From assembly GCA_964370545.1 (NCBI GenBank), contig CAYJJQ010000004.1, positions 1-63,372 on the forward strand: a stretch of 63,372 nucleotides of DNA, read 5' to 3'. Below, piece by piece: positions 15,257-20,262 of this stretch; position 1 is the first letter of the stretch; each line of letters begins with the position of its first letter. The notes under the pieces are model-generated. The model made no database searches, was not told the DNA's origin, and was given only the letters and a program-made list of their open reading frames with translations. The position numbers and the translations under genes were made by a program. The stretch is from an uncultured Muribaculaceae bacterium (GTDB lineage Bacteria; Bacillota_I; Bacilli_A; RF39; UBA660).

Positions 15257-16630
15257 ATGAAACTAAATAAAAAGAGTATTTTAATTAGTTTAGGAGTAAT
15301 TATATTATTAGTAGGAGGCTACTTTCTTTTTTCAGTTTATTTAAATAATAATGAATTAGTAGTAAGTAGTGATAATAACGATAATGAAATCTTTGCAGTA
15401 TTCTTAGAAACAGGATATGATACAAATGTATATAACTACTCAGAAGTTACTGAGTGGCCAGCAGATTATATTTTTAATTCGGAAAAGTCATACTGTACAT
15501 ATGGTTCAGAGTTATCTTGGGATGGTACTGGAGTAGCAGTATCTTTATCAGGTTCAGATATATGTTATGTTTATTTTAAGGTTCCGCCAGATATTTATTT
15601 AGCAAGCATGACGCTTAATGGAAGTGCTACATCAAGTATTCCTACTAAAACTGACACTATGTTTGTAGGTGTAAGCTGCGCTAATGCTACAGGTAAATGG
15701 AATTATGAAGATTGGTATTTAGAAGTAGATAATGTAACTGATAAAGTAAACTGTAGTGTTGATTTTACGAATGTAACTAATCCTCCTACAGTAGCGCAGC
15801 ATATTATAGATCTTCATAGTGGTACTGATGGAACAGAAGGTATATATTATACAAACTCATCAGAATATAGATATACAGGAATGGCACCAAATAATTACAT
15901 ATGGTTTAATGATGAACTATGGAGAATAATAGGGGTATTTGATGGAGATTCTCATGGAAGAGATGGAGAGAATTTAGTAAAGATAATAAGTGAAGATACT
16001 TATTCATATGCTTTTGATACGGCAAATGATAACTCGTGGGCTGACTCAGGAGGAGGAGCAACGCTTAATACGCTTTATAATACATATTATTATAATAGTA
16101 CAAATGGAACAAGTTATGCAGGGTGTCGTGGACACTCAAGTTCATTAACAAAGTCATGTGATTTTACAAACTCAGGATTAGATGCAGAAGCAAGAGAAAT
16201 GGTGCAAAGTGTAACGTGGTATTTGGGAGGGCACTCTATATCAGGAGTAACGGCAAGCGTAATGTATGGGTACGAAAGAGGAAGTACTGTATCAAGCGGG
16301 ACATATACCAGCACAACAGCAAATATAGGATTAATGTACGCAAGTGATTATGGATATGCAGCACCACCTAGTTGTTTAACGACAAATTTAAGTAGCTATA
16401 ATACTGCTGCATGTGGAGGTAATAATTGGCTTTTAGAAAACCAATATGAATTTACACTAACGGCCACCTCCACTACCTCGAACTTTGTGTGGAGTGTCGG
16501 CTATCACGGCGGCGTGACCAACATCAACGTTTACATCGGCTATGCCTCTCGGCCAGTCTTGTATCTGAAATCTTCTTTGGTATATTTAGGAGGAACGGGA
16601 AGCGAAGCTGATCCGTTCATAGTAGGATAA
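15257..16630 (+). CDS. DGR target protein 1 (long-N-terminus form): membrane-anchored extracellular protein with C-terminal variable region
   Basis: N-terminal TM anchor. The C-terminal segment contains VR1, which matches the TR with adenine-specific differences. Paralogous to 19070, 20346 and 21744. Confidence 0.85.
   Translation: MKLNKKSILISLGVIILLVGGYFLFSVYLNNNELVVSSDNNDNEIFAVFLETGYDTNVYNYSEVTEWPADYIFNSEKSYCTYGSELSWDGTGVAVSLSGSDICYVYFKVPPDIYLASMTLNGSATSSIPTKTDTMFVGVSCANATGKWNYEDWYLEVDNVTDKVNCSVDFTNVTNPPTVAQHIIDLHSGTDGTEGIYYTNSSEYRYTGMAPNNYIWFNDELWRIIGVFDGDSHGRDGENLVKIISEDTYSYAFDTANDNSWADSGGGATLNTLYNTYYYNSTNGTSYAGCRGHSSSLTKSCDFTNSGLDAEAREMVQSVTWYLGGHSISGVTASVMYGYERGSTVSSGTYTSTTANIGLMYASDYGYAAPPSCLTTNLSSYNTAACGGNNWLLENQYEFTLTATSTTSNFVWSVGYHGGVTNINVYIGYASRPVLYLKSSLVYLGGTGSEADPFIVG
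16459..16549 (+). other. DGR variable repeat VR1
   Basis: Gap-free alignment to TR 18571..18661 (offset 2112). By hand count there are about 17 differences at TR adenines and 2 at non-adenines. 12 of 15 AAY template codons are changed. Confidence 0.85.
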
Positions 16631-16653
16631 AAAGGAGAAGATAGAATAAAACA

Positions 16654-16679
16654 AACCGCCGGCAGGCGGTTATATTTTT
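16654..16679 (+). terminator. GC-rich terminator hairpin after target gene 1
   Basis: aaccgcc-ggca-ggcggtt followed by atattttt; the identical stem-loop follows target gene 2. Confidence 0.75.
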
Positions 16680-16754
16680 AATAAAAATATAATCATGTGC
16701 TAATATTAAACAATTGAAAAGTTTACATTATATTTATAATTCAAATAAAAAAAG

Positions 16755-16783
16755 TTGACAATATGTAAATGTGCGGGTATGAT
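16755..16783 (+). promoter_or_regulatory. Candidate sigma-70-type promoter for the DGR accessory/RT operon
   Basis: TTGACA (16755), 17-nt spacer, TATGAT (16778). Confidence 0.45.
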
Positions 16784-16875
16784 TAATATAGAGGTGATGT
16801 ATAATAAAAACAAAATTATCTATAATTGGTAATCGTGGTTCTTTTTGTCATGTATATAATGAAGATGCGTATATT

Positions 16876-17169
16876 ATGAATAATTTATTTAATTATAAAA
16901 TAATTGAGGGTAATAAGGTTGGTTTTCCTAAAACTGCTTTGTTAAAAATTACACAAAAACTTGATGAACTTAAAATATCATATGAAATTACACAAATTGG
17001 AGAAGATGTAAAAAGAAAATTATACAAACAAAATAATTATGATAAATATTATGATGAGGCCAAAGAAAAAATATCATTTGAAAACAAATTAGAATTGGCA
17101 TTAAAAAAACTTGAATTTATGAAACAAAGCGATGTTCTTAAAGTAATTGAGTTTATAAATGAGTATTAG
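16876..17169 (+). CDS. Small DGR accessory protein resembling MutS mismatch-binding domain I (MSL-like)
   Basis: The pattern G.F..vYnEDA..mnnL....i......vGFPktal.kitqkLdelkisYEitQ parallels E. coli MutS GDFYELFYDDA...MAGIPYHAVENYLAKLV..G.SVAICEQ. The similarity continues upstream of the ATG. Confidence 0.45.
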   Translation: MNNLFNYKIIEGNKVGFPKTALLKITQKLDELKISYEITQIGEDVKRKLYKQNNYDKYYDEAKEKISFENKLELALKKLEFMKQSDVLKVIEFINEY

Positions 17170-18570: not shown

Positions 18571-18661
18571 AAAAGCCAACTCCACTAACTCGAACAATGT
18601 GTGGAATGTGAACTATAACGGCAACGTGAACAACAACAACGCTAACAACGGCAATGCCTCT
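18571..18661 (+). other. DGR template repeat (TR)
   Basis: Non-coding, 10 nt after the RT stop. 15 of 29 codon-equivalents are AAC/AAT. GC-rich relative to its surroundings. Matches VR1 and VR2. Confidence 0.85.
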
Positions 18662-18800
18662 TTTTCTTTAGCTTATTGATTTTGTTTAATTAAGGGTAAG
18701 CCTTTAATTACAAGAGTTAATAAACATAAATTATCCCTGGGTTTTCCTAAATGATAATTGCAAATAAGAAAGGATTAGTCTATTTTCTAGGGGTGATGTA

Positions 18801-19067
18801 ATGAAAAATAAATATGATTTCTTAAAAACTATATATAAGAATAAATTAGTAGTTTTTAAGAAAAAGAATAATATAAAATCATTTGGTATAGATCAAATGA
18901 TTTTATATTATTTAAAGATAGAAACTAAAGAAGATTTAAAAAAAGTTAATTTTGACTTTATATTATTTGATAATTTTGATATAATTGATATGAAAATAGA
19001 AGGTAGTAATAAATATAATAATTATGTATTGATAGTATCATTATTAAAAAAATTGAAAGGAATGTAA
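18801..19067 (+). CDS. Hypothetical small protein (88 aa) between TR and target gene 2
   Basis: ORF with a GGGGTGA RBS, ending 2 nt before target gene 2. Only a weak resemblance to the N-terminal part of the 16876 ORF. Confidence 0.45.
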   Translation: MKNKYDFLKTIYKNKLVVFKKKNNIKSFGIDQMILYYLKIETKEDLKKVNFDFILFDNFDIIDMKIEGSNKYNNYVLIVSLLKKLKGM

Positions 19068-19069
19068 TT

Positions 19070-20212
19070 ATGAAAAAGAAAATTATGTATGTGTGTTTAT
19101 TTTTTGTGATTGGAACTATAGGTTTTATCTATTATTTTAAAAATAGTAATAATGAACAAAATGAGTTTTCTTCTTCTGTAAAATATGCTATCAATGTAGA
19201 TGGAGTGAGTCAAAATACTTTTCCTTCAAGTGGTAATTATGATGTTAGTGTAAATTGTGATAATGCAGTAGGAGAGTGGGATTATAAACTTGCTGGGGTA
19301 AAATTCACTAGTATTTCTGGTCCGACTGAATGTGCAGTTACTTTTACAAGTACAGCAAGTAAAACTACTATGTCAAATTATATTATAAATACTTTATATG
19401 CAGGTACTGAAGGTAGAAATGGTATATATTATACAAACTCATCAGAGTATAGATATACAGGATTAAATCCAAATAATTATATATGGTTTAATGATGAACT
19501 ATGGAGAATAATAGGAGTATTTGATAAAGATTCCCATGGAAGAGATGGAGAAAATCTAGTAAAAATAATAAGCGAAGATAGCTATACATATGCATTTGAT
19601 ACAGCAGATGATAACTCGTGGGCTGACTCTGGAGGAGGAGCAACACTTAATATTCTATATAACACATACTATTATAATAGTATAAATGGAACAAGTTATG
19701 CAGGGTGTAGGGGATATTCAAGTACAATAACAAAGTCATGTGATTTTAAAAACTCAGGATTAGATGTAGAAGCAAGAGAAATGGTGCAAAGTGTAACGTG
19801 GTATTTGGGAGCACATTCTACAACAGGAGTAACAGCAAGCGTAATGTATGGATATGAAAGAGGAAGTGTTGTATCAAGTGGAACATATACCAGCACAACA
19901 GCAAATATAGGATTAATGTATGCAAGTGATTATGGATATGCAGCACCAGCAAGCTGTTTGACAACAAATTTAAGTGGTTATAATACTGCTGCATGTGGAG
20001 GTAATAATTGGCTTTTAGAAAACCAATATGAATTTACACTAACAGCCAGCTCCACTAACTTGAACCGTGTGGGGATTGTGAGCTATAACGGCAACGTGAA
20101 CAACAACAACGTTTTCTACGGCTATGCCTCTCGGCCAGCCTTGTATCTGAAATCTTCTTCGGTATACTTAGGAGGAACGGGAAGCGAAGCTGATCCGTTC
20201 ATAGTAGGATAA
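19070..20212 (+). CDS. DGR target protein 2 (short-N-terminus form): membrane-anchored protein with C-terminal variable region
   Basis: N-terminal TM anchor. The C-terminal half is about 90% identical to target 1. Contains VR2. Confidence 0.85.
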   Translation: MKKKIMYVCLFFVIGTIGFIYYFKNSNNEQNEFSSSVKYAINVDGVSQNTFPSSGNYDVSVNCDNAVGEWDYKLAGVKFTSISGPTECAVTFTSTASKTTMSNYIINTLYAGTEGRNGIYYTNSSEYRYTGLNPNNYIWFNDELWRIIGVFDKDSHGRDGENLVKIISEDSYTYAFDTADDNSWADSGGGATLNILYNTYYYNSINGTSYAGCRGYSSTITKSCDFKNSGLDVEAREMVQSVTWYLGAHSTTGVTASVMYGYERGSVVSSGTYTSTTANIGLMYASDYGYAAPASCLTTNLSGYNTAACGGNNWLLENQYEFTLTASSTNLNRVGIVSYNGNVNNNNVFYGYASRPALYLKSSSVYLGGTGSEADPFIVG

Positions 20213-20261
20213 AAAGAGAAAGAAAGAACCAAATAAACCGCCGGCAGGCGGTTTTTATTTT
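19421..20261 (+). repeat. Direct repeat copy 2 (about 0.84 kb)
   Basis: See copy 1 (15839..16679). Confidence 0.8.
20041..20131 (+). other. DGR variable repeat VR2
   Basis: Gap-free alignment to the TR (offset 1470). About 10 differences at TR adenines and 3 at non-adenines. 7 of 15 AAY codons are changed, and a central block is identical to the TR. Confidence 0.85.
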
Positions 20262-20262
20262 T
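20236..20262 (+). terminator. GC-rich terminator hairpin after target gene 2
   Basis: aaccgcc-ggca-ggcggtt plus a T run. Confidence 0.75.

Follow-up and report, generated by a model that had tools for sequence, protein, structure and literature searches.

Diversity-generating retroelements (DGRs), in which a reverse transcriptase (RT) copies a template repeat (TR) and the copy, altered at adenines, replaces a variable repeat (VR) in a target gene, are well known from chromosomes, and in Legionella pneumophila the target LdtA is displayed on the cell surface with a C-terminal lectin-fold VR and a lipoprotein anchor. The prototype, the BPP-1 DGR (gene order mtd-avd-TR-brt), combines an RT carrying IGxxxSQ and YMDD motifs with an Avd partner, an AAC-rich TR of about 90-130 nucleotides (nt), TR/VR mismatches specific to adenines, a protein of C-type-lectin fold with the VR at its C-terminal end, and a structured RNA 3' of the TR, which in BPP-1 is needed for priming (bioRxiv 10.1101/2023.10.23.563531). 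The Legionella element is one of the cellular DGRs in which avd is accompanied by a small MutS-like (MSL) gene, an accessory class that always occurs alongside avd ('Architecture D', Wu et al., PMC5758913), and the chromosomal Treponema denticola TvpA DGR diversifies more than one cell-envelope protein of the lectin fold (PMC5758913). Further targets, the DUF6273 proteins of phages (the nd4/nd12 tentaclins and those of a Faecalibacterium prophage), carry a C-type-lectin-like domain with the VR in a beta-hairpin at its C-terminal end, and there too a DGR has two targets, one large and one small (PMC10743442, PMC11792537). Here we describe a locus at positions 15,257 to 20,262 of a 63,372-nt stretch of DNA (GenBank assembly GCA_964370545.1, contig CAYJJQ010000004.1; the whole stretch is called the window below), which shares with the prototype all of the traits listed above and is in all probability a complete chromosomal DGR of avd-RT-TR layout, with a putative MSL accessory gene, in an uncultured gut Bacilli bacterium (Table 1). 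The evidence supports a single TR serving two membrane-anchored, lectin-like targets, one on each side of the cassette.

An earlier interpretation of this DNA, made by inspection of the letters and their ORFs (open reading frames) and referred to here as the sequence-only reading, had proposed a complete cassette with one TR for two flanking targets, and all tests run bore this out; its repeat coordinates, ungapped alignments and hand-counted mismatches were reproduced exactly by script. The TR begins 10 nt past the RT stop codon, as had been claimed, within a 240-nt non-coding stretch between the RT gene and a small 88-codon ORF, and lies in none of the listed ORFs of at least 50 amino acids (aa). 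Aligned without gaps, TR and VR1 differ at 19 positions, 17 of which are TR adenines and two of which are not (G18610 to C and C18642 to T; one-sided Fisher test of mismatch positions against TR composition, p = 7e-7), while TR and VR2 differ at 13 positions, ten at TR adenines and three elsewhere (C18591 to T, T18602 to G and C18642 to T; p = 4e-3). Over both VRs, 27 of 32 mismatches thus fall on TR adenines, and the replacing bases are spread about evenly over C, G and T (5, 6 and 6 in VR1). The bias is specific to one strand, with 27 mismatches at TR A as against one at TR T, and 11 of the 27 are changes from A to T. No other such pair was present in the window: when it was compared with itself by BLAST in search of repeats biased at adenines, TR/VR1 and TR/VR2 alone came up, and an exhaustive ungapped scan of both strands found at least 50 of 91 positions identical to the TR only at the TR itself, VR2 and VR1.

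The composition of the TR is laid out along the reading frame of the targets. AAC or AAT makes up 15 of the 29 in-frame codons from GCC to TCT, in agreement with the earlier count, and adenines occupy codon positions 1, 2 and 3 in the numbers 17, 17 and 2, so that 34 of 36 stand at the first two positions. Besides these 15 codons, one ACT and one TAT are variable, and the one codon that mutation could turn into a stop is the boundary codon at the very start (AAA); each target could thus take roughly 1e18-1e20 different protein sequences. At their ends TR and VRs share GCCTCT and then part, the TR continuing with TTTTCTT and both VRs with the GC-rich CGGCCAG; this VR end (GCCTCTCGGCCAG, found in both VR1 and VR2) may correspond to the initiation of mutagenic homing (IMH) site, and the difference between the ends is consistent with an asymmetry of donor and recipient.

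The RT gene was confirmed with both of the motifs named in the sequence-only reading. Its best relative of solved structure is 8ub7_A, a 328-aa RT (chain of entries 8ub7-8ube; E 4e-17) whose GIPIGSLTSQ and YMDD align with LPIGNMTSQ and YMDD of the window protein and which, on its length and motifs, we take to be the bRT of the Bordetella phage; the next solved match is a group II intron maturase (E 1e-8). Among GenBank phages, the best matches are about 30% identical and are RT genes of gut phages, including nd12, one of the DGR phages described in PMC10743442, and the matching records also come from Faecalibacterium, crAss-like and Bordetella phages. An exact look-up found the window RT on record nowhere else. 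The Avd-like ORF that overlaps the RT start was likewise confirmed, with full-length matches to the NCBIfam model DivGenRetAVD (E 1e-13, 51 bits) and the Pfam family bAvd (E 3.5e-8, 34 bits), and the genes at the avd position in two related loci (L001 and L002) are on record with bAvd matches.

While RT, Avd, TR and both VRs stood as the sequence-only reading had listed them, it had overlooked the MSL gene, the 88-aa gene, the structured RNA that follows the TR, a pair of undiversified target paralogues and mild signs of decay. The MSL family sits upstream of avd in most related loci (orthologue alignment A3); Pfam MutS_I is matched by 11 of 16 orthologues (best E 1e-6), no other Pfam family is matched by more than three members, and the family profile aligns with domain I of MSH6 over the GxFY...GFP motif (E 0.28). 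The window copy is 30-48% identical to its orthologues, and the frame upstream of its ATG encodes the conserved N-terminal motif GSFCHVYNEDAY, so that the ATG-started ORF lacks the N-terminal half.

Directly 3' of the TR lies an RNA element whose structure is conserved by covariation. RNAalifold on an alignment of 18 loci gave 26 base pairs, 22 of them with compensatory changes, and in the first alignment 94.7% of the cells were paired compared with 39-55% when the partners were slid by one to three columns, a value reached by none of 500 shuffles. The covariance model built from it (R1) found 30 matches at E <= 5e-4 in 448 kb, one per locus, in each case on the strand of the cassette and immediately 3' of the TR, including 12 loci that had been left out of model building; the match in the window spans 18668-18801 (71 bits), and its fold has the same three-hairpin layout as that of locus L012. 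One related locus, L009 (sheep-rumen Bacilli, 5398-7958), has the order VR, TR, RNA element, MSL, Avd, RT, and since the element there comes after the TR and not the RT, its association is with the TR. At its end the family consensus has a 9-bp stem with a UACG cap, in agreement with the 'Avd-binding stem-loop' that 207 of 278 Avd-type DGRs are reported to carry downstream of the TR; a tetraloop hairpin of about 9 bp is part of the TR-flanking RNA there (Handa et al. preprint, bioRxiv 10.1101/2023.10.23.563531). Around the TR, no family in Rfam matched at gathering or permissive thresholds.

Table 1 Features of the DGR locus and its surroundings, in window coordinates.
Feature	Position	Strand	Remarks
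Target 1, 457 aa, long form	15257..16630	+	N-terminal membrane helix, beta-rich stalk, C-terminal C-type-lectin-like domain (~179-457)
VR1	16459..16549	+	Residues 401-431 of target 1; 72/91 identical to TR
IMH-like GC-rich VR1 end	16544..16556	+	GCCTCT CGGCCAG; same sequence in VR2 at 20126-20138
GC-rich hairpin and T-run after target 1	16654..16671	+	Read as intrinsic terminator
Sigma-70-like promoter	16755..16783	+	TTGACA, 17 nt, TATGAT; 11/12 consensus positions; consensus match only
Putative MutS-like (MSL) accessory gene	16798..17169	+	ATG-started ORF 16876-17169 (97 aa); frame open from 16798
Avd-like accessory protein, 117 aa	17159..17512	+	Overlaps RT start by 14 nt
DGR reverse transcriptase, 353 aa	17499..18560	+	LPIGNMTSQ and YMDD; Pfam RVT_1 E 5e-19
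TR	18571..18661	+	Non-coding, 91 nt, 15 AAY codon-equivalents
Structured RNA element directly 3' of TR	18662..18801	+	Hairpins ~18673-18723 (inner stem 18687-18710), ~18729-18759, ~18767-18788
88-aa gene	18801..19067	+	Stop 2 nt before target 2 start
Target 2, 380 aa, short form	19070..20212	+	Membrane helix, shorter stalk, same C-terminal domain
VR2	20041..20131	+	In target 2; 78/91 identical to TR
Terminator-like GC-rich hairpin after target 2	20235..20254	+	Near-identical to post-target 1 copy
Two further paralogues	20346..22880	+	Long form 20346-21725, short form 21744-22880

The sequence-only reading could not assign the targets to a named family, and it is at the level of the fold that they can now be placed. 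The AlphaFold2 (AF2) model of target 1, built on 59 homologues from a family of more than 2000 proteins, has a mean predicted local distance difference test score (pLDDT) of 77.6 and consists of a helix at residues 5-30, which coincides with a hydrophobic, Lys-flanked segment, a beta-rich part at about 45-172 and an alpha/beta domain at about 179-457. Searched with Foldseek against solved structures, it gave a single significant match, the immunoglobulin A (IgA) peptidase of Thomasclavelia ramosa (9qa6, E 3e-4, 299 columns), and against predicted viral structures its top matches (to E 2e-7) were mostly phage proteins annotated 'DUF6273 domain-containing'. The peptidase is a surface protein of a gut Bacillota whose 291-residue N-terminal domain has a C-type-lectin-like core of about twice the usual size (PMC12237041); the match is assigned to this domain from the aligned length, and unlike the fold the sequences show no detectable similarity, nor is the peptidase reported to be diversified by a DGR. 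The predicted structure thus points to an oversized C-type-lectin-like domain resembling DUF6273 and the peptidase's N-terminal domain, with residues 401-431 (VR1) modelled as a beta-hairpin (strands 410-414 and 420-424) at a pLDDT of 52-69, low values that would be expected for a hypervariable stretch.

By sequence this relationship leaves fainter traces. None of the four paralogues in the window matched Pfam at E <= 0.1, so that the threshold of DUF6273 (PF19789) was not reached, no NCBIfam model was reached by the target proteins, and searches of the target against solved structures by sequence, singly or as a 59-sequence profile, found nothing. With DUF6273, relatives of the target score 16.6-21.4 bits where 23.5 would be needed, and the aligned part is confined to the final 40 positions of the profile (132-172), which cover the VR end. 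The window domain, at about 280 aa, is also larger than the 172-position model, and the targets differ from those of the phages in being chromosomal and in having a membrane helix and stalk. We therefore regard them, going by the model, as distant, enlarged, membrane-anchored cousins of the phage DUF6273 targets in fold and not as members of that Pfam family.

Targets 1 and 2 are 89% identical in DNA over 833 nt, and their 3' parts including the VRs (16250-16700 and 19850-20300) have a GC content of 40-43%, as against 20-30% in the genome and 18-23% in the cassette core. The two paralogues downstream share the scaffold (RPxLYLK..G.GT..DP[FY]II) and match the TR at best at 37-38 of 91 positions, so they are not templated by it, and from their sequences they appear to form an undiversified, 'fixed' pair beside the diversified long and short pair.

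Another overlooked component is the 88-aa gene, a conserved gene found in 22 loci at this same place, after the TR and ahead of the downstream target, whose start it usually overlaps or abuts. Its 304 homologues carry no Pfam domain and no name, and an exhaustive HMMER profile search of 1.84 billion representatives returned 136 clusters only, almost all of them stand-alone proteins of about 80-120 aa. The AF2 model was poor (pLDDT 60) and gave no significant fold match. As the N-terminus resembles by eye the start of MutS domain I, the protein was also considered as a second MutS-like protein, an idea that the tests did not support: MutS_I matches were weak and limited to four of 22 orthologues (best E 0.028), hhalign of the family to the MSL family gave a probability of 6%, no proteins of MutS length appeared in the HMMER search, and MutS came up in the structure search only at E = 2.

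Related cassettes were found in L001, L002 and 30 genome loci, most of which keep the gene order with TR/VR pairs. The assemblies are deposited as uncultured Bacilli, 'Tenericutes' UMGS910, Candidatus Onthocola and, in a few cases, Muribaculaceae, and come from human, sheep-rumen, chicken and other sources. Homologous TRs keep both their sequence and their place in about 25 loci. VRs lie on both sides of the cassette in at least 14 related loci, most of the others being cut by contig ends; the arrangement of one target per side, which the sequence-only reading had noted correctly, is hence the norm in this clade, and of the DGRs curated by Wu et al. (PMC5758913) about 13% have two targets, so that its description as non-standard was overstated. 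Pairs that differ purely or nearly purely at adenines are present in L002 (13/13 and 19/20), L008 (10/10 twice), L023 (18/18) and L026 (21/21), while decayed pairs occur in L004 (16/24 and 14/23 mismatches at adenines) and L021 (15/25 and 11/22), and the window pairs (17/19 and 10/13) stand between these extremes. Three RT/cassette copies lie on three contigs of one assembly from a Hadza gut (CAKOHR01; L017, L027 and L028), so that one genome bin can contain several copies of the system. In L013, L019, L024 and L025 the upstream VR equals the downstream one, together with 200-640 nt of identical upstream flank; we rejected this as evidence of homing because so long an identical flank indicates assembly collapse or recent gene conversion.

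The window locus is flanked by housekeeping genes (mraZ, two penicillin-binding proteins, pyruvate formate-lyase and its activase, MraY, a class I tRNA synthetase of the TrpRS/TyrRS class, ABC-F, a D-Ala-D-Ala carboxypeptidase and two tRNAs), and the host makes peptidoglycan. No capsid, tail or integrase gene was seen adjoining the cassette, and in L001 and L002 the flanks comprise a ribosomal protein, SecY, ParAB and division genes. The chromosomal context proposed in the sequence-only reading is thereby confirmed, but such a location is common among DGRs, contrary to what that reading had assumed. Two genes upstream of target 1 (12603-13490) lies a gene for an Rpn-family recombination-promoting nuclease/putative transposase (NCBIfam TIGR01784, E 2.5e-20), whose product has a repeated EGKAEGIL motif near its C-terminus.

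Compared with the prototype, the window locus has the order avd-RT-TR with the RNA element after the whole cassette, two targets (one per side) and the extra MSL and 88-aa genes; it is chromosomal, its targets are membrane-anchored cell proteins and not phage tail-fibre tips, and its IMH/IMH* similarity is much shorter. From the Legionella and other MSL DGRs it differs in the size of the MSL product (about 97-124 aa, with 96-178 aa in relatives, against 112-283 aa in published ones) and in its strong divergence, and from Legionella also in having an N-terminal membrane helix as anchor, two targets and a Gram-positive-type Bacilli host. The Treponema element, in turn, has an HRDC accessory gene and no MSL gene, and its targets are FGE-sulfatase-type lipoproteins, some of them remote.

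Three alternatives would deny that the locus is a chromosomal DGR at all. The TR could be a duplicated target fragment in decay, with an excess of adenine changes produced by AT-biased mutation in a genome of 25-30% GC, and indeed the genome is very AT-rich and the segment is non-coding and lies between paralogous genes. AT pressure, however, does not explain a bias confined to one strand or the 11 changes from A to T, and the phasing of adenines at codon positions 1-2 together with the strand specificity goes so far beyond chance that AT-biased decay of a gene fragment is ruled out; the TR moreover stands 10 nt after an RT that has an Avd gene, recurs in about 25 loci, many of them with 100% adenine-only mismatches, and is accompanied by a covarying RNA. 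Strand asymmetry and conservation across loci thus refute this explanation, which we consider next to impossible. Much the same can be said of the proposal that the RT is of a different class (that of group II introns, retrons or defence RTs) and that the similarity of the repeats is coincidental. Its best NCBIfam match is a group II intron RT/maturase model (88 bits), followed by weaker ones to Drt3a and Drt4, and no DGR RT model is among the NCBIfam matches; yet these scores are far below the cut-offs (300, 200 and 450 bits, respectively), the group II model is aligned only over positions 64-305 of 353, and the best solved relative is the 328-aa RT with its IGxxxSQ aligned. The Avd gene, the TR/VR spectrum and the conservation across loci are specific to DGRs, and Avd, the adenine-specific TR/VR pairs and the RT motif together refute the proposal, to which we give practically no weight. 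A prophage or other mobile element as the carrier of the cassette, with the targets as phage receptor-binding proteins, would agree with nearest fold relatives among phage DUF6273 proteins, nearest annotated RTs in gut phages, the Rpn-family gene two genes upstream, a Bro-N gene adjoining the cassette in L001 and neighbourhoods that differ between genomes. Against this stand the housekeeping flanks in the window, L001 and L002, the finding of no capsid, tail or integrase gene beside the cassette, N-terminal membrane helices on targets that form four tandem paralogues, and an RT at most about 30% identical to any phage RT, so that we hold a phage origin of this copy to be very unlikely.

A fourth alternative accepts the locus as a DGR by descent and takes the present copy for a relic in which homing has ceased and the VRs are frozen and drifting. 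Several observations speak for it, or otherwise count against a complete and working DGR, and they are gathered here. Five of the 32 TR/VR mismatches are at non-adenines, two in VR1 and three in VR2, and one of them is common to both: TR C18642 corresponds to T at 16530 in VR1 and at 20112 in VR2, an Ala codon in the TR and Val in both proteins, whereas related TRs have GCG at this codon. A non-adenine difference shared by two independent targets is not explained by simple homing, and it implies that since that change the TR in its present form has been copied into neither VR. Moreover, VR2 carries GGG for TGG, turning a scaffold Trp into Gly, and the TR/VR homology past the last variable position amounts to 6-7 nt, less than in a typical IMH/IMH* pair. 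Among the accessory parts, both Avd scores are under the curated cut-offs (80 bits for DivGenRetAVD, 40 bits for bAvd), and a search of the Avd-like protein against solved structures by sequence gave no Avd match. The window MSL copy has no direct Pfam MutS_I match even with its extended frame, and there is no ATG, GTG or TTG between the TGA at 16795-16797 and its ATG at 16876; a Shine-Dalgarno-like GAGGTG lies at 16792-16796, where the only candidate starts are the ATA codons at 16801 and 16804, so that either an unusual (ATA) start codon would be used or the gene is N-terminally truncated, and this uncertainty bears on current activity. The RNA copy is one of the weakest of its family (71 bits, with 118-150 for most), several consensus pairs being unpaired as aligned. 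The target model is of moderate confidence and its match to a solved structure comes from one entry. The closest relative of the RT (L004, 58% identical) and L021 have clearly decayed TR/VR pairs, and two related clusters of targets at 90% identity (P0044 and P0040) show little or no variation in the VR. Finally, the 90%-identity cluster of the window target itself has one member, the next relative being 58% identical, with no strain-level relatives in the protein collection.

These points are offset by others. RT (with its catalytic YMDD), Avd, the 88-aa gene and both targets are intact ORFs, and published DGRs that look functional also have some non-adenine differences in one of two targets (PMC5758913). 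The non-adenine divergence between TR and VRs is 3.6-5.5%, compared with about 10% between the targets outside the VR, which indicates that the VRs were homogenised by the TR after the paralogues had diverged, and fairly recently. Within the clade, a related cluster of 14 full-length proteins of at least 90% identity (P0100) has 15 columns with four to nine alleles, all of them at residues 322-345 in the VR zone and with invariant scaffold residues among them, while columns upstream of the VR have no more than two alleles. Weighing both sides, we find it doubtful, though possible, that the copy is a relic, and regard as rather likely that the DGR is active at present; that it was active on both targets in the past is very likely.

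How the element would work can be outlined from its parts on the Bordetella model, from which we infer the transcription unit, priming, homing, surface exposure and the binding of a ligand. Since a promoter-like site is present and no terminator comes ahead of 20235, MSL and all that follows up to and including target 2 may be transcribed as one unit, the hairpins after the two targets (AACCGCC GGCA GGCGGTT, part of the duplicated 3' ends) looking, by their sequence, like bidirectional terminators. GC-rich inverted repeats downstream of the VR are known from about a third of DGRs, and the hairpins were also considered as such cruciforms; we read them instead as terminators because of the T-runs behind them and their position some 105 nt beyond the VR, on the far side of the stop codon. 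The transcript, probably started from the site at 16755, would run through MSL, avd, RT, TR and the structured RNA, whereupon RT and Avd would attach to the element 3' of the TR, with synthesis of complementary DNA (cDNA) primed near the TR 3' end (GCCTCT). The RT would copy C, G and T faithfully and place random bases opposite adenines, and the cDNA would replace, in one or other of the flanking target genes, the matching 91-bp VR close to the 3' end, directed by the GC-rich end (GCCTCT CGGCCAG) that only the VRs have and that would mark the recipient. About 17 residues on the beta-hairpin and loops, on one face of the C-type-lectin-like domain, could so be randomised without stop codons, and the diversified proteins, anchored in the membrane by the N-terminal helix, would likely serve varied ligand binding at the surface of a gut bacterium.

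As a system, the DGR described here is a fresh instance of an established one and not a new type, a conclusion that is well supported. Two-target DGRs, the avd-RT-TR order, MSL genes, DUF6273 targets, RNA elements downstream of the TR and non-adenine differences in one of two targets have all been published. New aspects are the DGR lineage, the membrane-anchored pairing of a long and a short target and the conserved 88-aa orphan gene; our search of the literature on DGRs in RF39, Tenericutes or Mollicutes found nothing relevant. More tentatively, and with less than even confidence, we suggest that the gut Bacilli clade might be a distinct subtype, with a cassette of five fixed parts, namely MSL, Avd, RT, TR plus its RNA element and the 88-aa orphan, between a long and a short membrane-anchored, lectin-like target. 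The orphan, apparently coupled in translation to the target downstream and with no relatives detected in other settings, might on this view serve the DGR as a new accessory factor or else assist the diversified protein as its partner or chaperone.

In conclusion, a cellular DGR lineage in uncultured gut Bacilli is now well documented, and a lectin-like scaffold that forms the diversified receptor-binding tip in gut phages serves bacteria as well, which carry it in pairs on the membrane of their own cells. While the locus leaves the general understanding of DGRs unchanged, the clade provides a compact test bed with natural examples from pristine to decayed, in which a single promoter-to-terminator unit of about 3.5 kb is usable for studying the roles of MSL and the 88-aa protein, and it offers a system for studying how a TR placed after the RT is primed.

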